In this document: one piece after another, positions 1,104 to 57,180 of the stretch | Layout: every line of letters starts with the position of its first letter | Numbering within the stretch: position 1 is the first letter of the stretch | Source: a virus | Taxonomy: Duplodnaviria > Caudoviricetes | Reading direction: 5' to 3' (one strand) | DNA: 64,000 bases | IMG/VR virus record: IMGVR_UViG_2551306228_000004 | Span: 1-64,000 of that record | Notes under the pieces: model-generated | Database searches by the model: none | What the model was told of the DNA's origin: nothing | Seen by the model: only the letters and a program-made list of their open reading frames with translations | Translations under genes and position numbers: made by a program

Positions 1104-2921
1104 TCAAGGCTTTTTAAGATGCTTTCGTTCAAAGGTTTCTAGACTTTTACGAGCAGAGCAACACACTCGACGTGTGTTGTCTGGTCCTTGAGAATACATT
1201 TTTTTATCCTCGTCACTGTTTTGAGGACACAATTTATCTGTTTCTAGTTTAGCATTTTTACGTTTACTTTTGAATTGTTTTCCATCCTTGTTTTGAGTTT
1301 CACCTGTTTTGAATATTATGGTTAACATTGCAGGATCAATTTCTCCGTCGCTATTAACTCCACCAACAATAATTTTCTCAACAATACTTTCAAAAACTGC
1401 ACGATCAAACTCTGTAAGCATTTTCTGTGAAGATAGCAAGCGCTTAAACTCAGTTAGTCTTTTCTTTACATCGATTTCTGATTTTAAGGTTGTTTCAATA
1501 TTTACCTTCTCTTCTGCTAGAAACTCTTTTTCTGAGGAAATTTCATTGTACTTTTCATTGTATATGGTATCGCTAATTTTCCCTTCGAGCCTTAGATTTA
1601 CAAGATTCTCCTCTTTTTTGAGTAATGTTCGAAGTTTGTTTGTAATCCTTTTTAGTTCCTTGTTAAGGCTATTGTCATTCAATTCAGATTCAATCGTTTC
1701 AAGTAAGTCTGTCATTAAATTTTCATTTGAATGATAGAGTTGTCTGTACGCTTCCATGAAAGCCCCCTCAATAGCGAGCTCTTCTAATCCTTTACTATGC
1801 TTACAAAATTTCTTTCCTTTCTTTATGGATGTAACACAGTGCCACACAACCTTGCGATAATCTGAACGGCAGTGCCAACTTCTTCTAGATAATATTGAAC
1901 CACAAAAGCCACATTCTAACATGCTACTAAAAGCATACATTTTTGAATAGCGTTCACGTTTTCCATTTACATTTGCAGCTGTCTTTTTATTTCCTGCCCT
2001 ACGCAACCTAATCTCCTGAGCTTTCTCAAAGTCCTCTTTAGATATTATAGGTTCATGATTATCTTTGATGTAGTACTTATCCTCTTCACCAAAATTACTC
2101 AAACGTCTCTTACTTATTGGGTCAACTGTAAAAGTTTTTCCCATTAGAATATCACCTTTATATTTTTCATTCTTTATGATTCCTAAAACTGTTGTATCAT
2201 TCCAATGATCTAACCCTCTCGGAGATTTGTAACCTAGTTCATCAAGTTCCCTTGCTATAACTTTCCCTCCAATACCTTCAAGGTACCTTTCAAAGATATA
2301 ACGAACTATTTTTGCTTCTTTTTTATTGATAGAAAGTTGCTTAGTTTCTACATCATAGTTATACCCCAAGCACCCTTGAAAACCTATCAGTTCACCTCGT
2401 TGCATCTTCATTTTTAATCCCTTTTTCACATGTGCAGATGTATTTTCTACTTCTTGCTGTGCAACAGAGCTAAGAATCGTAAGAAGCAGTTCACCATCCA
2501 TTGTGAGAGTATCTATGTTTTCTTCCTCAAAATAAACTCCAATTTGCATATCCTTTAACATTCTGACATACTTCAAAGTATCTAAGGTGTTTCTTGCAAA
2601 TCTAGCAATTGCTTTTGTTACAATATAATCAATTTCTCCATTTACACAATCATTGATTAAACGTTGAAAATCTTGTCTCTTTCCCACTTGAGTTCCCGAA
2701 ATCCCCTCATCTGCGTAGATATCTACGAGTTCCCAATCCGAACGCTGAGAAATGTAATCTTTATAATGTCTCACCTGAGATTCATAACTATTTTTCTGAT
2801 CATCGCTATCAGAACTTACTCTACAATAAGCAGCAACCCTTTTTAAATGTCTTTCTACATTGACACCTCTACGTCGAACTAAAGAATCAGCTTTTATTAT
2901 TTCAACATTATTTGTTTTCAT
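1104..2921 (-). CDS. Large serine recombinase (ICE integrase)
   Basis: YCRVSS catalytic motif, DEGISGT, recombinase domain, CGFCG...C..C zinc ribbon, coiled coil; reads through att. Confidence 0.95.
   Translation of the reverse strand: MKTNNVEIIKADSLVRRRGVNVERHLKRVAAYCRVSSDSDDQKNSYESQVRHYKDYISQRSDWELVDIYADEGISGTQVGKRQDFQRLINDCVNGEIDYIVTKAIARFARNTLDTLKYVRMLKDMQIGVYFEEENIDTLTMDGELLLTILSSVAQQEVENTSAHVKKGLKMKMQRGELIGFQGCLGYNYDVETKQLSINKKEAKIVRYIFERYLEGIGGKVIARELDELGYKSPRGLDHWNDTTVLGIIKNEKYKGDILMGKTFTVDPISKRRLSNFGEEDKYYIKDNHEPIISKEDFEKAQEIRLRRAGNKKTAANVNGKRERYSKMYAFSSMLECGFCGSILSRRSWHCRSDYRKVVWHCVTSIKKGKKFCKHSKGLEELAIEGAFMEAYRQLYHSNENLMTDLLETIESELNDNSLNKELKRITNKLRTLLKKEENLVNLRLEGKISDTIYNEKYNEISSEKEFLAEEKVNIETTLKSEIDVKKRLTEFKRLLSSQKMLTEFDRAVFESIVEKIIVGGVNSDGEIDPAMLTIIFKTGETQNKDGKQFKSKRKNAKLETDKLCPQNSDEDKKMYSQGPDNTRRVCCSARKSLETFERKHLKKP
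1139..1179 (-). other. rumA: ICE attachment site: displaced 3' end of rumA/rlmD (23S rRNA m5U methyltransferase)
   Basis: Minus strand reads T-H-V-E-C-V-A-L-L-V-K-V-stop (1177-1139), the typical RlmD C-terminus; inverted repeat CAACACAC-tcgac-GTGTGTTG (1159-1179) at the junction. Confidence 0.8.
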
Positions 2922-50900: not shown

Positions 50901-52891
50901 ATATCTGGTGTTACCGTAATAGGTTCTGGAATGGGTTCAAGTTCCACCGTTACATGAGGTTTGGGACTATATGGTGTTACTGTACGTGCCACTGGTAGGG
51001 TATTTAAGGCAAACCAGTAAGACAATCCAACATTCTGTGGCATATCGCCTTGGCCAAAGGTTACTGTGTAGGTATTTCCTGATGTAACTGTTGAGACAAT
51101 TGCTCCTTTATAAGCATAACGACTTGATGTGGTATCCCATTCCTCAGGTAAATTCAAATCACTTGCACGGTTTGAACCCAACGAACGGGCCAGACCTTCA
51201 TTAGTCACTTGAACGGTTGAGCCATTAATCGGCACAAATTTCCCAGATGAATCTTTAACATATTCTAGACCAATGTCATTATGATTGAGGGAAGAGTGTG
51301 TGAAGACTCCTGGCTTTTCTTTGGAGAAGGTAACTTGTGAACCGTCTTCCAAGAAATACTTGGCAACTACACGAAACTCCATCTTGTCTGTTCGCCAATC
51401 ACCGTTTCCGTCATTTCGATAGGCAATGAAGCCTTCGGTAGGATCATTTGGCACAACCAATTTCACGGCATCGGTTCCAGCTGGTGATACAAGGTTGGTA
51501 ATATCGTAAGTCACTCGACTAATCTTTTTACCATCAAATCGTGCATTTTGAAGATTTTGATAGTTAAAACTAAGTGTATCACCTGTTTTGAAGCTATCAT
51601 AGACAAAGAATCCTGTGGAATCTAAAATTCTTGAGTAGCCACCCAGCAAAGTATCACCAGTTGAAATGATCTGATCAGGATTTCGGGTAATGGCACCATG
51701 TTGTGCTTGTGGCTCACCGTTATTGAGATTGAGGGCTTGAGCAAGGGCTTCAGAAATATAACCTTCTTCACCTTTTGAAATCTCGGCCAAATCACGTTGA
51801 TAGCGTTCCAATTCTTTGGCATTATAGGCATCGATCGCTTCATTCTCTTTTCTGGCTGTGGCTTCTTTTTCTTGATTTCGTTTAGTAATGGCTTCAATCT
51901 CAGCTGCACGATCTGAAACTATTTGTTGTTTCTCCTGATTATCTTGATCTACTGCGGCTTGACCTGTACGGTTTTCAGCATCAACAGCTGCTTGACCAGC
52001 CTGATTACGCCTTTCAATGGCTTCATTATCTGCCTTTGCCTTAGCAAGTCCAGCTTCATTTTCTTTTTGAATGGCCTGGTTTTTCGCAACAATATCATCT
52101 GCCTTGGCTTTCTTTATTAGATAATCCGCTACAGCTTGTTCGTTAGTTGATTGAATGGTTTCAACAGCCTTGCCATAGTTTGTATAGTCAAGTACAGATG
52201 TCCCATTTCCTGATGAAACTACTTGTTCTTTTACTGTCACATCAGCATCTGCATACCGAGTTTTTAGGTCATTGACTTTAGTATCAACCCAAGTATTTGT
52301 CTCTTTACCAGTTTGGTTGGCCCCCTCGTAGGCCTGTGACAGCTCCTTATTTTCCTGTTCGATGCGAGCTTTATTCGATTCGTATGTCGCTTTATCAGCA
52401 TTGTAGGTTTCAGTAACTTCATTGATAGCCTCAACTTGGTTTTGGGCATCTTCTTCTGCTTTTGAAATTTGTTGGTTGGTTTCTGCCGCAGAAGTTGTAT
52501 TTCCTAAATCCATTGGACTATCTTCAACCGTAGAAACACCTTCAGCCTTTGCTTCTTCAACTGCTTGTGTTACCGTATCATGTGGTACGGTGACAGCAAT
52601 CGCTCCATTAGATTGTCCAGTTAACGCTAAACTTTCAGTTTGTTCAGATACAGGGTTTGGTTGTGTTTCTGGTAAATTCGTGGCTGGATTTTCCGTTCGT
52701 TGAATGGCGGTGTCAACTGATGATGTGACTTCATCAGCATGTGCAACCGTGCCTCCCCAAGCAACAACGGCAGTCACCATCGTTCCAAGGGCAACCGAAC
52801 ATAGAGTACGGTATTTTTTACTCTTACGAAAGACGTGTTTCTCGCCTTTTTCCTGATTGACAAGAAAGTGATGATTACATGTTTTGGTCAT
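47996..52891 (-). CDS. Antigen I/II-family LPXTG surface adhesin
   Basis: Signal peptide, Ala-rich repeats, V domain, Pro-rich linker, repeated VDDYPEE isopeptide domains, LPNTG anchor. Confidence 0.92.
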   Translation of the reverse strand: MTKTCNHHFLVNQEKGEKHVFRKSKKYRTLCSVALGTMVTAVVAWGGTVAHADEVTSSVDTAIQRTENPATNLPETQPNPVSEQTESLALTGQSNGAIAVTVPHDTVTQAVEEAKAEGVSTVEDSPMDLGNTTSAAETNQQISKAEEDAQNQVEAINEVTETYNADKATYESNKARIEQENKELSQAYEGANQTGKETNTWVDTKVNDLKTRYADADVTVKEQVVSSGNGTSVLDYTNYGKAVETIQSTNEQAVADYLIKKAKADDIVAKNQAIQKENEAGLAKAKADNEAIERRNQAGQAAVDAENRTGQAAVDQDNQEKQQIVSDRAAEIEAITKRNQEKEATARKENEAIDAYNAKELERYQRDLAEISKGEEGYISEALAQALNLNNGEPQAQHGAITRNPDQIISTGDTLLGGYSRILDSTGFFVYDSFKTGDTLSFNYQNLQNARFDGKKISRVTYDITNLVSPAGTDAVKLVVPNDPTEGFIAYRNDGNGDWRTDKMEFRVVAKYFLEDGSQVTFSKEKPGVFTHSSLNHNDIGLEYVKDSSGKFVPINGSTVQVTNEGLARSLGSNRASDLNLPEEWDTTSSRYAYKGAIVSTVTSGNTYTVTFGQGDMPQNVGLSYWFALNTLPVARTVTPYSPKPHVTVELEPIPEPITVTPDIYIPKTFTPEKPVTFTPKPLDEVVQPNLTLTKVTLPVRPIPKELPTPPQVPTVHYHAYRLTTTPEIMKEVVNSDQANLHEKTVAKDSTVIYPLTVDALSSNRAQTTSLIFEDYLPAGYLFDKETTQKENGNYVLSFDETKNFVTLTAKENLLQEVNKDLTKVYQLTAPKLYGTVQNDGATYYNSYQLLLNKGTTNAYTVTSNVVTVRTPGDGETTTLITPDKNNENADGVLINDTVVALGTTNHYRLNWDLDQYKGDRSAKETIARGFFFVDDYLEEVLDVVENGTAVTTLDGQNVSGITVKNYASLNEAPKDLQDKLARAKITPTGAFQVFLPDDNQAFYDQYVQTGTSLALLTKMTVKDSLYGQNKTYTNKAYQVDFGNGYETKEVTNTLVSPEPKKQNLNKDKVDINGKPMLVGTQNYYTLSWDLDQYRGIKADSSQIAQGFYFVDDYPEEALLPDETAVQFVTSEGKPASGITVKSYSHLSEAPKTLQEAFSKRNIQPKGAFQVFMPEDPQAFYENYVTKGENITIVTPMTVLDSMLNSGKSYDNVAYQVDFGQAYETNTVTNYVPKVTPHKSNTNQEGILIDGKTALPNTVNYYKIVLDYSQYKDMVVTDDVLAKGFYMVDDYPEEALTLNPDGIQVLDKDGNRVSGISVSTYASLSEAPKVVQDAMAKRQFTPKGAIQVLSSDDPKAFYETYVKTGQTLVVTLPMTVKNELTKTGGQYENTAYQIDFGLAYVTETVVNNVPKLDPQKDVVIDLSHKDESLDGKEVALHQTFNYRLVGAMIPSNRATDLFEYGFEDNYDEKHDEYNGVYRSYLMTDVILKDGSVLKEGTEVTKYTLQQVDTENGLVSISFDKSFLETVSDDSAFQADVYLQMKRIAAGQVENTYLHTVNGYVISSNTVVTHTPQPEEPSPNQPTPPQPPIESLEPPVPASILPNTGEQESLLGLIGAGILLGTAYGLKRKEEK

Positions 52892-53052
52892 AAATAGTCC
52901 TTCTTTTCTTTTTTATGTAGCAACAAACTGTCACTCTTTATTAGATACGAGGGCGTTAAACGAGCACGACAAAAATAGGAGTTTTGACGAAGAACTTTCC
53001 GTTCTAGGAGAAACTCTCTTTTTTGTACAGCTCGTAGCCCAAGTTCAATACC

Positions 53053-53085
53053 ATCATAAAAAAGAAGGCTTGATTTTGTTATCAC
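53053..53085 (-). promoter_or_regulatory. ICE promoter motif copy 5 (adhesin-SNF2 operon)
   Basis: GTGATA-ACAAAAT-CAAG-N10-TATGAT. Confidence 0.65.
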
Positions 53086-53153
53086 AATCAGTTCAGGGAA
53101 AAGAAAAAGCTATCGGAAGCACAACCGATAACCTCTGAAGAATACTTAAAAAT

Positions 53154-53217
53154 AAAAAAAGAGGAGGACTGACGCATCAGACCCTCCCAGACGTGACTAG
53201 CACGCCCCAATTCGATA
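53154..53217 (-). ncRNA. Candidate abiF-associated small RNA (about 64 nt)
   Basis: Own promoter at 53223-53251; hairpin GGCGTG-CTAGT-CACGTC; terminator hairpin GGAGGG-T-CTGA-TGCG-TCAG-TCCTCC + T7. Confidence 0.65.
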
Positions 53218-53222
53218 CAACA

Positions 53223-53251
53223 ATAATACCATTAATTTCGTTTTTCGTCAA
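53223..53251 (-). promoter_or_regulatory. Sigma-A promoter overlapping the abi stop codon
   Basis: TTGACG-N17-TATTAT with TG extension. Confidence 0.75.
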
Positions 53252-54242
53252 TAAATTTACTTAATTGTTGAATCGATGTTTTTCTATTTGTACTGATAAT
53301 CTTAAAGAGAATATCACGATTATTGAGGGAAACATCAAATCGTTCAACAATTTCATTGAATTGATTGATATAGTTATTGAGGACTACTGTGTCAAATTTT
53401 AAAATGTTCAAAGTCCAAATTAGTAGAATGAAATAATCTTCAATGAAAACACAAGTAAATGTCGATAATCCTAAATCTTGTTTTATCTGTTTTTTGAGTG
53501 CTTTAGATACACCGCTTGAGAAATTAGCATCAAAAATCGCACTGTTATGCATGGTAGCATTCCTTAACTCAATAAGAGCGTTGACAACTAACTCGAGAGA
53601 GTTTGACCTATTTGGAATAATCGTGAAATCTTGATTCAATTTTTCACGACTTGACTTAGTTAAACTTCCTAAAAATCTACTAAACTGTCCTAAAGTAATA
53701 ACTTCAAAATAAGCCCAGAGAGGAATTTGATAATCACTTTTTAAATAATGCTTAATGACCTCATTTTTATCTGAGTAATAGTCAATTGTATCCAGTACAT
53801 TTTGTCTAGTTTCATTATACTGATCGAGTTTATTACCATATTTTTCATGGTCTTCAGGATAGTCCATGTAACAAGCTAATTGATGTTCTAATATATCTTC
53901 TATCCCACTACTAGATTCTGCGACTATTGAATCGATAGTCCGATTTTTTAATGCTGTCTCTACAAGCATTACTATTGGATAAAATAGTCCTTTTAACTCC
54001 ATATCAAAATTGTAGATTGCTTCAATTTCCTTAAATGAAGAAAGGGGCAGAATCCCATCTGAATTGGATTTTTTAACGAATCTATATCGTTTATAACCAT
54101 GATAATATCCCATATTTAAGAGTGTGACAGAGTCACCATCTTGAATATCTATTTTATGATTTTTAAAGATATGGTTAACTAGATCCCCAGAAGTTAAACC
54201 AGTTTTCGACTCTTTTTTCATTTTTTCAATAATTGTTTCCAT
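53232..54242 (-). CDS. Abi_2 (AbiD/AbiF-like) HEPN ribonuclease
   Basis: GYY..KRY, IYNFDMELK...VETALK, IPLWAYFEVITLGQFS, HEPN R-x4-H (RNATMH). Confidence 0.88.
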   Translation of the reverse strand: METIIEKMKKESKTGLTSGDLVNHIFKNHKIDIQDGDSVTLLNMGYYHGYKRYRFVKKSNSDGILPLSSFKEIEAIYNFDMELKGLFYPIVMLVETALKNRTIDSIVAESSSGIEDILEHQLACYMDYPEDHEKYGNKLDQYNETRQNVLDTIDYYSDKNEVIKHYLKSDYQIPLWAYFEVITLGQFSRFLGSLTKSSREKLNQDFTIIPNRSNSLELVVNALIELRNATMHNSAIFDANFSSGVSKALKKQIKQDLGLSTFTCVFIEDYFILLIWTLNILKFDTVVLNNYINQFNEIVERFDVSLNNRDILFKIISTNRKTSIQQLSKFIDEKRN

Positions 54243-54339
54243 TAAAATATTCAGTAACCTCTCCTTAGTATTATATCATATCACTAAACTTATCAAAGTA
54301 ACTAAAAGGTAGAATTTCTTACGAAATATTTGCAAAACA

Positions 54340-54372
54340 ATATGCTAACAAATCCAATTATTGTTAGCATAT
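54340..54372 (-). terminator. Terminator after the T4SS operon
   Basis: ATATGCTAACAA...TTGTTAGCATAT. Confidence 0.65.
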
Positions 54373-54378
54373 CCTTTT

Positions 54379-57180
54379 TTATTTCGTCGTATAAGCAAAA
54401 CTCAAGCTACTATCCACTCCAGATAATTTACGGAAGGTATAGTTTGGATTGCCATTGTAGTTGGTTTCGGAGATAAGGAATGAGCCATCTGGGTAGACTT
54501 TCTCCACAAAAGCCACATGTCCGTATTCTGTTGGTGTGCCATGTCCTCCTCTCGCAAAGGAAAGGATAGCTCCTGCTTGTGGACTTGTCCCTGTCTCTCC
54601 ACCGAGACTTGCGGCTGTTCGTACCCAATCTTGGCCATTGCCCATGGTACTGATAATTGGAATCTTCTCACCATTTTTACCTTTGAGTTTTAGCCCCAAT
54701 TGGTTGATACGGGCTGAAACTCCCCAAGTACATTGGCCGTAAGCATATCCCATACCGTCACCACCTCCTGGAATAGAGTTTTCAAAGAGGTCGCCTCGTA
54801 CAGCTTCAAGAGCTTTGGGGTCACTTTGTGCTGTCCCACCGTTGGGTTGACTAAAGTCTTTTTCAATTTGGTAATACCACTCACTTGCTCTTGTCTGACG
54901 TTCAAGTAGCTTATCACCACTATTTCCTTCCCAGTAAATGAGAAAGAGTTGGGCAAGACTAGCTGGACTACCTGTATTTTTGAAGAAGTCCTTTAACCAG
55001 TTGGTGTAATAAGGACTATCCCCATGCAACATGAAATCCAGTTGTAACCCTAAGTCATACCATTTTTGATGTTTTCCTTTGGCATATTCCAACAATAAAG
55101 TATGTCTGCGTGACCCATCCGAGGTATCTGTCCATTGTCCTAAGCCTAAACCACGTTTGAGAATATTTGGGTAACGCCCATTATATATAGTTGGACCATT
55201 GAGTGAAAGCCAGCCCTCATCATCCCACGAACCGTCTGTCGCACCAACAGGTGGAGATAGATAGTCGCCCTCCGCACGCTTGGGATTAATAGAGGATTCT
55301 ACCGACCAATTTCCTAAAATAGCTGCGATAGCTTGATCGGTCGCACCTTTGCTTTTAAGATAGTCATAAATTGCCTTGGCTCTCTCGAACTCATCGCCGC
55401 CAAACTGCCCGATAGTTGGAAGAATGGTGGTCTGAACCTGAATCACTTTTGGAAAGTAGAATGCTGGATTGACATAGACCAACTTATCCGTGTCATCATC
55501 AACCTTTTGATAGGTGACTTTTAGACCCATTCCGTCCTTGGTTTGACCAATAATGTCTCCTGCCAAGACTTGTTGATTTTCGCTCACTCGGCCTGAATGA
55601 ATGCCAAACAAGGTTAGTTTAGTCTTATTAACTCCCTTACCAGATGTCAAAATAACATTCTCTCCATCAAGAGATACCTTGCCATCCATCGGAGACACAA
55701 TGACTTGACCTTCTTTTGCTTCTAAGATGATATGGTGATGAAGCGTTGGTTTCTCATCAATGACCTCATAACCATATCGGTAGGTCATGTTTAAGCTATC
55801 CTCATCGGTCTGTCCCTGAAAGGGATTGTCCAATTCTTGAAGGGCTAAATAGTTGCCTTCTTCGGTCAACTCCTTTAGTTCTTCTTGGTCCTCATCAGAC
55901 AGCTTGTAAGCAGGTTCCTTATACAAGTCAGACATGGATTTAATAGAATCTCCACCGTTTAAGTCCGACCACAGTTGACTGAGAAATTCTTTGTAGGTTG
56001 TTCCGCTTGTCTCTATGAAATCATCTAACTTGTAGTCTTGGTATTGATGATTCATGTAAACCATAACCTCATCAATCTTGGTGTAATAGGTAATTCCCTT
56101 TTCGTTGGTTCTTGTATGCTCCGCATCTTCCCACGTCATGTGGGTATAGGCCTTGGTCAATTCCATCTCATCTTGTTGAATGACACTGCTACCTGAGACA
56201 CTCATGAAAAAGCTCATCATCAAAAGGAGTATCAAGAGAATGCCTGAGACAATCCAAGTCAAAGGATTTCCCGCAAGGACAGAAAAGAAAGTCATACTTC
56301 CCTTAATGGCTTGGACGATTCCTTTGAAACCTGCGACACTTTGTTTTCTGGCAAGCTTTAAAAAGGTATGGTAGCGTCTTCTTGGTTTAAGAGGTTTCTG
56401 GCGTGTGAATCCTTTTCCCTTTTTGAAGTTCTGGAATCTTTCCTTTCCATGAGAAAATTTTGTTTTGGTAAACCGCACACCAGTCTGTCCACTTTTTACT
56501 GCCACCTTACCTGCTTGATAAGTAAACCTGCCATAGCGTCTGGCTTTCAAACTAGTATCCTTCATGGTTCTTAGACCATCTAAATCATCCTCCTGTGCTA
56601 TCAGGTCAAGGGATTCAGATGCAGCCAAGCCTAATCCAGCTTTGACTTTGGTAGAGTTTTTCTTAGACTTTTGGACTTTCTTGAGTTGTTTAACCTCACG
56701 CTTGGCAGAACTTACGTCTTTTTCTGCACTTAGCCGATCAAATGATTTTTCTTGGTGAAACCGAAAGCGAGACTTCAGGGAAGGATTTTCTTTTTGGAAA
56801 GTAAACTTGGGATTAACTGCCTTTTGCTTCTCACTTAGTTTCACTTCTGACAAATGTTTTCTTGCCGTCCGCAAACGCTCTTGAGCTTGAGGAAGTCGAT
56901 AGTTCTTGATTTCCTTTACCTTCAACAGTCTAGGAGAAACATAGGTAATTTCCTTTATGAACTTCTCTTCTGCTTCCTTTTGGCTACTGAGTAGATTTCC
57001 TTTTAACTCTGTTTTCTTTTCCTGAAACAGAGAATTTTTGGCTGGTTTTCGAAATCTTCCTTTTTTAGGAACAGTCTGTCTTAAGGTCCTAACTTCTTTC
57101 CGATAATGCATACGGGCTGATTTTAAGTTGCTTCGAAAGTTTTGCCTAGCCTGTTTGACTAGCTTTTTATCCTCTTTCAT
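54379..57180 (-). CDS. VirB1-like cell wall hydrolase (M23-like + phage-tail lysozyme + CHAP)
   Basis: LGNWSVESS, GLGQWT, GQCTW...YGHVAFVE...SETN. Confidence 0.9.
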   Translation of the reverse strand: MKEDKKLVKQARQNFRSNLKSARMHYRKEVRTLRQTVPKKGRFRKPAKNSLFQEKKTELKGNLLSSQKEAEEKFIKEITYVSPRLLKVKEIKNYRLPQAQERLRTARKHLSEVKLSEKQKAVNPKFTFQKENPSLKSRFRFHQEKSFDRLSAEKDVSSAKREVKQLKKVQKSKKNSTKVKAGLGLAASESLDLIAQEDDLDGLRTMKDTSLKARRYGRFTYQAGKVAVKSGQTGVRFTKTKFSHGKERFQNFKKGKGFTRQKPLKPRRRYHTFLKLARKQSVAGFKGIVQAIKGSMTFFSVLAGNPLTWIVSGILLILLLMMSFFMSVSGSSVIQQDEMELTKAYTHMTWEDAEHTRTNEKGITYYTKIDEVMVYMNHQYQDYKLDDFIETSGTTYKEFLSQLWSDLNGGDSIKSMSDLYKEPAYKLSDEDQEELKELTEEGNYLALQELDNPFQGQTDEDSLNMTYRYGYEVIDEKPTLHHHIILEAKEGQVIVSPMDGKVSLDGENVILTSGKGVNKTKLTLFGIHSGRVSENQQVLAGDIIGQTKDGMGLKVTYQKVDDDTDKLVYVNPAFYFPKVIQVQTTILPTIGQFGGDEFERAKAIYDYLKSKGATDQAIAAILGNWSVESSINPKRAEGDYLSPPVGATDGSWDDEGWLSLNGPTIYNGRYPNILKRGLGLGQWTDTSDGSRRHTLLLEYAKGKHQKWYDLGLQLDFMLHGDSPYYTNWLKDFFKNTGSPASLAQLFLIYWEGNSGDKLLERQTRASEWYYQIEKDFSQPNGGTAQSDPKALEAVRGDLFENSIPGGGDGMGYAYGQCTWGVSARINQLGLKLKGKNGEKIPIISTMGNGQDWVRTAASLGGETGTSPQAGAILSFARGGHGTPTEYGHVAFVEKVYPDGSFLISETNYNGNPNYTFRKLSGVDSSLSFAYTTK

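Follow-up and report, generated by a model that had tools for sequence, protein, structure and literature searches.

The abi gene and the RNA encoded behind it

The stretch of DNA analysed here (hereafter referred to as the window) comprises positions 1 to 64,000 of the IMG/VR virus record IMGVR_UViG_2551306228_000004 (G000; 119,191 bases, classed as a provirus). Its minus strand carries an abi gene (53232–54242), an open reading frame (ORF) of 336 amino acids with a TAA stop codon at 53234–53232, and behind it the element that concerns us here, a predicted small RNA of ~63 nucleotides (53154–53216). It belongs to an uncatalogued RNA family that we named R1. An earlier note, made from the sequence of the window alone, had read this pair as an AbiF-like HEPN RNase followed by a promoter-driven small RNA, and as a candidate RNA-antitoxin defence module. 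By sequence comparison, R1 is a structured RNA gene that is conserved together with a promoter of its own, and the abi–R1 pairing marks a single Abi_2 clade, with members in Bacillota, Actinomycetota and Spirochaetota.

The abi protein matched the Pfam family Abi_2 (PF07751) over residues 41–238 with 99.2 bits (cut-off, 25.6), and its best match in the defence library was PADLOC AbiD (E = 2.3e-27); a search of NCBIfam with the protein matched no family. The R-x4-H motif of HEPN proteins is intact (RNATMH, R227–H232), and R227, H232 and N233 are invariant across the aligned homologues (n = 25, 33–80% identity). When the AlphaFold (AF2) model of the protein (predicted local distance difference test score, pLDDT, 87.5) was searched against the PDB with Foldseek, the sole match at E ≤ 0.001 was 8vz6_A, PbAbiF bound to its noncoding RNA (ncRNA), with an E-value of 9.7e-4, template modelling (TM) scores of 0.55/0.61 and 13% identity over 313 aligned columns. 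A profile of the abi homologues found the same entry, weakly (E = 7.3e-7), as its only match among the PDB sequences, where the single abi sequence found nothing. The abi product is an Abi_2/AbiD-F-group HEPN protein with the PbAbiF fold, and the AbiF-like identity and intact HEPN motif put forward in the earlier note are both borne out.

The promoter of R1 (53223–53251, minus strand) lies where the earlier note had placed it. Its -35 hexamer, TTGACG (53251–53246), is within the last codons of abi, and a 17-nucleotide spacer separates it from an extended -10 element, TGgTATTAT (53231–53223; TG at 53231–53230 and TATTAT at 53228–53223), just past the abi stop codon. This is the top-scoring promoter-like site between 52500 and 55000, matching the consensus at 10 of 12 positions plus the TG. 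The same region holds 11 promoter-like sites, compared with 8.2 ± 3.0 in shuffled sequences, and is not enriched in them, so that the match is by itself not above chance.

From the predicted start at A53216, R1 would begin with a single-stranded 5′ tail, AUCGAAUUG, ahead of a hairpin, P1 (53189–53207, minus strand), of 6–7 base pairs with a 5-nucleotide loop (core GGCGUG / CUAGU / CACGUC). The family's P1 has 9 base pairs and a UUCG loop; in the model alignment, the copy in the window has lost the inner stem and is correspondingly shorter. A short linker leads to the second hairpin, P2 (53162–53188, minus strand), an intrinsic terminator with the conserved tip GAUGCGUC, and the RNA ends with a C followed by U7 (U-run, 53154–53160, minus strand). 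P2 and the U-run serve the abi mRNA and the small RNA in common; abi has no other terminator. The earlier note had described an RNA of about 64 nucleotides with this hairpin and terminator, and we recovered it at 53216–53154. Its predicted folding energy of -22.4 kcal/mol (z = -2.43) was equalled by 3 of 200 shuffled sequences, which is no more than suggestive. The promoter–hairpin–terminator arrangement is raised above chance by its conservation, in the same register and with compensatory changes, downstream of the abi homologues.

A second terminator-like hairpin (53105–53136, minus strand) lies ~20 nucleotides past the U-run of R1; its sequence is kept in the streptococcal relatives, also where abi has been replaced. 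A mini-ORF starting from an AUG in the P2 loop was considered and rejected: the AUG is absent from clostridial variants, and in the window no stop codon precedes the terminator.

Conservation of R1 and its linkage to abi

We aligned 50 distinct non-streptococcal copies of R1 over 68 core positions and built a covariance model from them. In the window, the model gave one match (53155–53216, minus strand; 37.3 bits, E = 4.7e-10) over its full length, and this copy was also the sole match in the 119-kb source record. RNAalifold independently predicted the two hairpins from the alignment, with compensatory changes in 15 of 20 pairs. In our 19-pair structure, 94.6% of the alignment cells were paired, compared with 35–51% when the partners were slid, and double changes occupied 198 cells as against 15–38 with slid partners; none of 500 shuffles attained the score of the real alignment. 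Both sides had changed in six of the nine P1 pairs and nine of the ten P2 pairs; 99.2% of the P2 cells were paired. The covariation across homologous 3′ regions that the earlier note had proposed to look for is thus present in both helices.

Unpaired positions are conserved as well: among 73 distinct copies, the 5′ AAU-G-GG, the first U of the linker and the GAU..UC of the P2 tip are each kept in at least 90%. The promoter keeps its register: in 56 of 67 distinct upstream sequences the end of the -10 hexamer falls within three neighbouring positions, and in 59 the -35/-10 spacer measures 17 nucleotides. Promoter scores averaged 9.9, compared with 6.4 ± 2.3 for 1,460 windows drawn at random from these loci. 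The promoter in the window stands at the family's modal distance from R1, with the 17-nucleotide spacer. Close streptococcal relatives share 93.7% identity in R1 and 85–87% in the coding sequence.

The homologous loci examined were 12 close ones and 77 obtained with a profile of distant homologues. In nearly all of the downstream sequences inspected, promoter, hairpin and terminator come after the stop codon, as they do in an Enterococcus homologue with 36% identity. The R1 model matched downstream of abi, on the same strand, in 73 of the 78 loci found by protein. The other five are three loci cut by contig ends (L048, L082 and L087), a fragment (L088) and a match of 22% identity (L089); every homologous locus with downstream DNA carries R1 (73/73), each with a single plus-strand match. 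The distance from the stop codon to R1 has a median of ~44 nucleotides and is 90 nucleotides or less in 62 of 70 loci, the eight longer distances including truncated reading frames. With so short a distance, the R1 promoter overlaps the end of the gene.

R1 also follows abi directly in all four of a further set of records: an integrative conjugative element (ICE)-like Streptococcus gallolyticus record filed as a phage, the satellite phage Javan277, an Enterococcus faecalis plasmid and a Streptococcus salivarius plasmid. In keeping with the earlier note, which had expected annotation to miss the RNA, no RNA feature is annotated at its place in the four records fetched, two of which are plasmid gene tables that list no RNA genes. 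The copy in Javan277 (L163 2533–2574, plus strand; 31.4 bits) lies directly behind an abi gene of 30% identity and is minimal, consisting of the 5′ tail and P1 followed by a U-run, without P2. This suggests that the 5′ tail plus P1 may be the functional core of R1.

The linkage is confined to one part of the Abi_2 family. In 151 Bacilli genomes, we found 29 Abi_2 matches in 24 genomes, and R1 stood beside two of the 29, both members of this clade. In a tree of Abi_2 proteins (quick method, midpoint root, no rows left out), the R1-linked proteins form one branch with a Shimodaira–Hasegawa-like approximate likelihood-ratio test (SH-aLRT) value of 99 and a stem length of 1.67, separate from the clade with upstream abiF motifs (SH-aLRT 99). 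In a Streptococcus genome, the locus of an Abi_2 gene from another clade (L137) contains the Rfam family Srn266 (2373–2483, minus strand; 115 bits), which lies past the Abi_2 domain match, in the downstream direction, and on the other strand. Comparison of the homologous loci revealed no conserved protein partner beside abi, and none upstream of it beyond close relatives, which agrees with the earlier note's statement that no protein antitoxin is adjacent.

R1 is not the Rfam abiF motif, against which the earlier note had suggested a search. RF03085 had no match at E ≤ 10 in 52000–55500 or in 53130–53260 alone, and none at E ≤ 1 in 10 distant homologous loci; nor did any Rfam 15 family match R1 in the window or in the 10 distant loci. 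As a positive control, RF03085 was found upstream of seven other Abi_2 genes, where its consensus is unlike R1. The GAUGC that is common to the abiF-motif consensus and the P2 tip of R1 is a 5-mer in different structural contexts, and we treated it as chance.

On the 5′ side of abi, the 136-nucleotide spacer contains only the terminator of the neighbouring gene and a putative promoter, read from the sequence (54267–54296, minus strand; TTGATA at 54296–54291, TG at 54278–54277 and -10 TATAAT at 54275–54270). Contigs from two assembled RNA libraries with the same organism label both stop exactly at 54247 (minus strand), 5 nucleotides upstream of the abi ATG (54242), and one of them runs there straight into Illumina adapter sequence. 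This position may be a defined 5′ end of the abi mRNA, in which case the leader would be only 5 nucleotides long and would exclude the AGGAG at ~54265.

R1 without abi and the mobile-element setting

The linkage of abi and R1 is one-sided: no assessable gene of the clade lacks R1, yet R1 often occurs without the gene. A scan of species-representative genomes for the R1 core pattern, independent of the protein, gave at least 120 places, of which 80 were fetched. Among these 80, the abi gene of this clade was directly upstream and intact in 31, broken in 7 and absent in 36, and 6 had too little upstream DNA for a judgement. The hosts belong to Bacillota, Actinomycetota, Treponema and Mycoplasmatota; in Collinsella, 7 places had the gene and 17 did not. 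Among 63 distinct R1 loci on viral contigs, 11 had abi, 51 had none and 1 was too short. R1 matches of 30 bits or less in whole genomes were treated as ordinary terminators; a weak match that was inspected (L161), between an AI-2E-family transporter gene and tuf, resembles one.

Solitary copies of R1 keep the structure, with 91.6% of cells paired and 131 double changes compared with 12–41 when slid, and many of them retain the promoter. Their neighbours are often defence or mobile-element genes, including AAA_21 plus RloB, HsdR, Mrr, PBECR4, integrases and other Abi_2 types; some stand beside FabF or ROK genes.

In Streptococcus, R1 matched at E ≤ 1e-6 in 8 of 151 genomes. Four of these have abi upstream, one has PBECR4 swapped in, one has R1 behind an AbiE pair, one has lost the 5′ 85% of abi, and one is a false positive. 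In locus L156, the 5′ part of abi has been deleted and R1 retained. The boundary of the streptococcal abi-to-PBECR4 swap lies 8 nucleotides before R1.

The genes around abi in the source record encode a VirB4-like ATPase, a lysozyme/CHAP cell-wall hydrolase and an antigen I/II adhesin, so that this part of the record looks like an ICE rather than a phage. Judged from gene content, abi–R1 is cargo of a streptococcal conjugative element at a cargo hotspot. An ICE hotspot was what the earlier note had suspected, and relatives do carry PBECR4, AbiE or AbiGI genes at the same site, which is flanked by the genes for the cell-wall hydrolase and the adhesin (loci L162, MN270258.1 62710–70717; L155; L101; L160). 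One relative has an AbiGI gene, a gene for a helix-turn-helix (HTH)-domain protein and a small ORF added after R1; in two relatives a PBECR4 nuclease gene replaces abi; another genome has an AbiEi/AbiEii pair and then R1.

Most of the solitary viral copies come from SPbeta-like Bacillus phages, and the stretch flanking the SPbeta-type R1 is common to 41 GenBank Bacillus phage records. In phage phi3T (KY030782.1), R1 scores 69.2 bits in the unannotated spacer between yonN and yonK, on the same strand as those genes. This type of copy (L375 2884–2951, plus strand) is full length and has no abi, clean U-run or obvious in-register promoter. It overlaps an annotated hypothetical ORF on the opposite strand and is preceded by a conserved hairpin-like stretch. 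A literature search for an RNA between yonN and yonK found nothing relevant.

On a viral contig of 121 kb (L295), an abiF motif above Rfam's cut-off (1359–1395, 43.6 bits) lies upstream of R1 (1597–1665, 62.7 bits), both on the plus strand and 200 nucleotides apart, and the 1.6 kb around the pair contain no Abi_2 gene of either type. Weaker cases of an abiF motif beside R1, by a home-made abiF model, are L358 and L171. In the latter, a Lachnospiraceae locus, two copies of R1 (73.2 and 35.4 bits) flank a weak abiF-like hairpin (18.8 bits with Rfam, 32.7 bits with a narrow home-made model), the three features lying at 1567–1634, 1646–1682 and 1721–1790 on the minus strand; the cluster is behind an RlaP-type nucleotidyltransferase gene and has no Abi_2 gene.

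Other small RNAs found near R1 in phage loci, besides the abiF motif of L295, were tRNAs, skipping-rope RNA and DUF3800-VIII RNA. One abi–R1 locus has skipping-rope RNA (RF02924) just upstream, two viral loci have it near a solitary R1, and two others have DUF3800-VIII RNA (RF03075) near R1 (skipping-rope and DUF3800-VIII loci: L070 1278–1359, plus strand; L299 1195–1264; L358 2540–2610; L302 2665–2730; L296 824–889). R1 seems to share its phage-associated small-RNA neighbourhoods with these two RNAs.

Function of R1 and comparison with known systems

On balance, we are inclined to read R1 as the RNA antitoxin of the abi toxin, in a downstream arrangement with its own promoter. The locus would then be a two-part, toxin–antitoxin-like abortive-infection cassette, whose toxin, to judge from its family, would be an AbiD/F-group HEPN RNase acting as a homodimer with R227 and H232 in the active site. 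R1 would be supplied by two routes: each abi mRNA would carry it at the 3′ end, there being no terminator between the stop codon and R1, and an excess would come from what appears to be a strong constitutive sigma-A promoter in the last abi codons. It may bind the abi protein and block the RNase, by analogy with the unrelated upstream abiF-motif RNAs that act on AbiF, and phage infection could disturb the balance of R1 and toxin and so free the RNase. We favour the antitoxin reading because of the protein fold and the precedent within the family, the one-sided linkage, and the company that R1 keeps with abiF-motif RNAs in phages. The seven genome loci in which a broken abi gene is followed by an intact R1 also speak for it.

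Several observations weigh against this reading. R1 differs in sequence and fold from the RNAs of the AbiF systems, from which its binding to the protein is taken over by analogy. Its conserved core is small and variable, with P1 shortened in streptococci and P2 absent from the phage satellite. Where the upstream DNA could be assessed, the clade gene is missing beside R1 at 36 of 74 genome loci and at 51 of 62 distinct viral loci, and copies so frequently solitary may have a function of their own. As to expression, we infer from the conserved promoter, and so from sequence, that R1 is transcribed as a small RNA of its own. Contigs of the two assembled RNA libraries span abi and R1, at mean word depths of 108 and 112; such contigs show presence only and not the start, end, strand or level of a transcript. 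Two raw-read runs with the same species label contained 0 and 2 reads of the element, and are no test of R1 expression because the element is lacking in them.

It is conceivable, as an extension of the antitoxin reading on which we would place distinctly less confidence, that R1 represents a second, structurally unrelated class of antitoxin RNA, and that the solitary copies of SPbeta/phi3T and other phages are mimics that disarm this Abi clade.

Alternatively, the solitary copies could mean that phages and mobile elements carry R1 as an autonomous small RNA with a role independent of abi, for example in host or phage processes, and that the abi clade just happens to precede it or exploits it as a terminator and recombination flank. 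We regard this as rather unlikely, although much fits it: besides their number, the solitary copies occur in contexts as mixed as integrases, AAA_21 plus RloB, HsdR, PBECR4, FabF and ROK genes with their structure kept; the yonN–yonK copy of phi3T, at 69.2 bits, has a flank common to 41 Bacillus phage records; and the streptococcal swap of abi for PBECR4 stops 8 nucleotides short of R1, which therefore behaves there as backbone flank. Yet every assessable gene of the clade, in three phyla and in unrelated contexts, keeps R1 at a short distance with the promoter over its last codons, a fixed linkage that a chance neighbour would not show, and orphan antitoxins or phage-borne antitoxin mimics would look solitary too.

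The strict linkage of abi and R1 would fit equally well if the HEPN protein needed R1 as a cofactor or sensor RNA rather than being inhibited by it, with R1 as a fixed-sequence scaffold akin to a CRISPR RNA (crRNA) for activity or trigger recognition. Cas13 has been proposed to descend from this protein family (PMC12737573 and PMC12948488), and the conserved single-stranded 5′ AAUnGCGG of R1 could pair with a target. R1 has, however, no variable or spacer-like part, the RNA of the characterised relatives is an inhibitor, and an intact R1 behind a broken abi, like the solitary copies, fits an antidote better; we consider a cofactor role unlikely.

There may be no separate RNA at all, the element being the 3′ untranslated region (UTR) and terminator of abi, perhaps with an mRNA-stabilising role, and the promoter match being fortuitous. 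P2 with its U-run is indeed an ordinary terminator and the only one that abi has, promoter-like sites are not enriched around it (11 compared with 8.2 expected), and the RNA libraries gave no transcript start, which contigs cannot show and raw runs lacking the element could not supply. This explanation nevertheless seems very improbable in view of the promoter hexamers, which hold a fixed register in 56 of 67 distinct sequences while the surrounding bases vary, of the conservation of P1, the 5′ tail and the P2 tip beyond the needs of termination, and of the solitary copies with promoters of their own.

Finally, R1 is hardly a type I-like base-pairing regulator that represses abi translation through the abi 5′ region: although it is a small RNA encoded beside a toxin gene, with a pyrimidine-rich 3′ arm of P2 that resembles an anti-Shine–Dalgarno sequence, it lies on the same strand as abi rather than antisense to it, and across 43 loci its predicted duplexes with its own abi 5′ region (-24.8 kcal/mol; median rank of the own pair, 25 of 43) were no better than those with foreign regions (-25.1 ± 5.7) or those of shuffled R1 (-25.6), so that such pairing was rejected.

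AbiF with its upstream ncRNA has recently been adopted as the model for a possible origin of RNA-guided Cas13 in an RNA toxin–antitoxin pair. The gene in the window falls in a large sister clade with the AbiF fold, which is represented in no fewer than three phyla and resides on conjugative elements, plasmids, phage satellites and prophages; as far as the sequences compared here tell, members of this clade invariably have another small RNA as partner, with the gene order reversed. Should R1 be the antitoxin, the RNA partners of this toxin family would have been exchanged in evolution, defence-finding pipelines that call a one-gene "AbiD" would miss half of the system, and the cloning of abi alone may fail or mislead. 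If the solitary phage copies are mimics, they would represent an RNA-level arms race, amenable to study in a model organism through the solitary R1 of the SPbeta family.

A literature search for an RNA downstream of Abi_2 genes, which did not cover Zilberzwige-Tal et al. 2025, found nothing relevant. The covariance models of that study, the primary paper on AbiF ncRNAs, are named in the methods of PMC12804078 as AbiF5_iter3.CM and diverse_rna_xinsi.CM, and R1 might already be among its "diverse" RNAs.

Among known arrangements, small RNAs of the DapZ/MicL kind are enterobacterial 3′-UTR RNAs that act in trans as base-pairing regulators, and their promoters lie inside the end of the upstream gene. 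R1 resembles them in that its promoter overlaps the last codons and its terminator is common with the mRNA; it is unlike them in having no evident pairing target at the abi 5′ region. With the type III system ToxIN, abi–R1 would share an RNase toxin and an RNA made in excess; it differs in toxin family, in gene order, which is reversed, and in that R1 is a single unit rather than a set of tandem repeats processed by the toxin. Phages also carry mimics of the ToxI antitoxin RNA, called pseudo-ToxI, and solitary phage R1 would parallel such antitoxin mimics.

The lactococcal AbiD, AbiD1 and AbiD-like systems are related in that AbiD is the best defence match of the abi protein, and the review PMC13064643 treats them as two-component systems of a protein plus an RNA. 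According to that review, the conserved essential sequence of these systems is upstream of the genes, unlike R1.

R1 is most like the AbiF/abiF-motif type III systems, although it fails their motif and upstream-leader features. With systems such as RCd22-AbiFCd of Clostridioides difficile and PbAbiF-AbiFr (8vz6), abi–R1 shares an Abi_2/AbiF-fold HEPN protein with R-x4-H, a single small structured RNA that is closely linked to the gene and has its sigma-A promoter and intrinsic terminator, the lack of a protein antitoxin, and a location on mobile elements. The published AbiF ncRNAs, as described in PMC12373285, PMC13064643 and PMC12737573, are upstream 5′ leaders that contain the Rfam abiF motif and neutralise the toxin by direct binding, and the leader attenuates transcription according to PMC12373285. 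R1, by contrast, is downstream with its own promoter, and it is a single copy where RCd22 has two motifs; the abi protein is itself distant from PbAbiF, with 13% identity and a separate clade in the tree. The earlier note's comparison with AbiF toxins held in check by an adjacent ncRNA thus stands as to adjacency and not as to the published arrangement, the abi gene of the window having its small RNA behind it where the AbiF genes have theirs in front.

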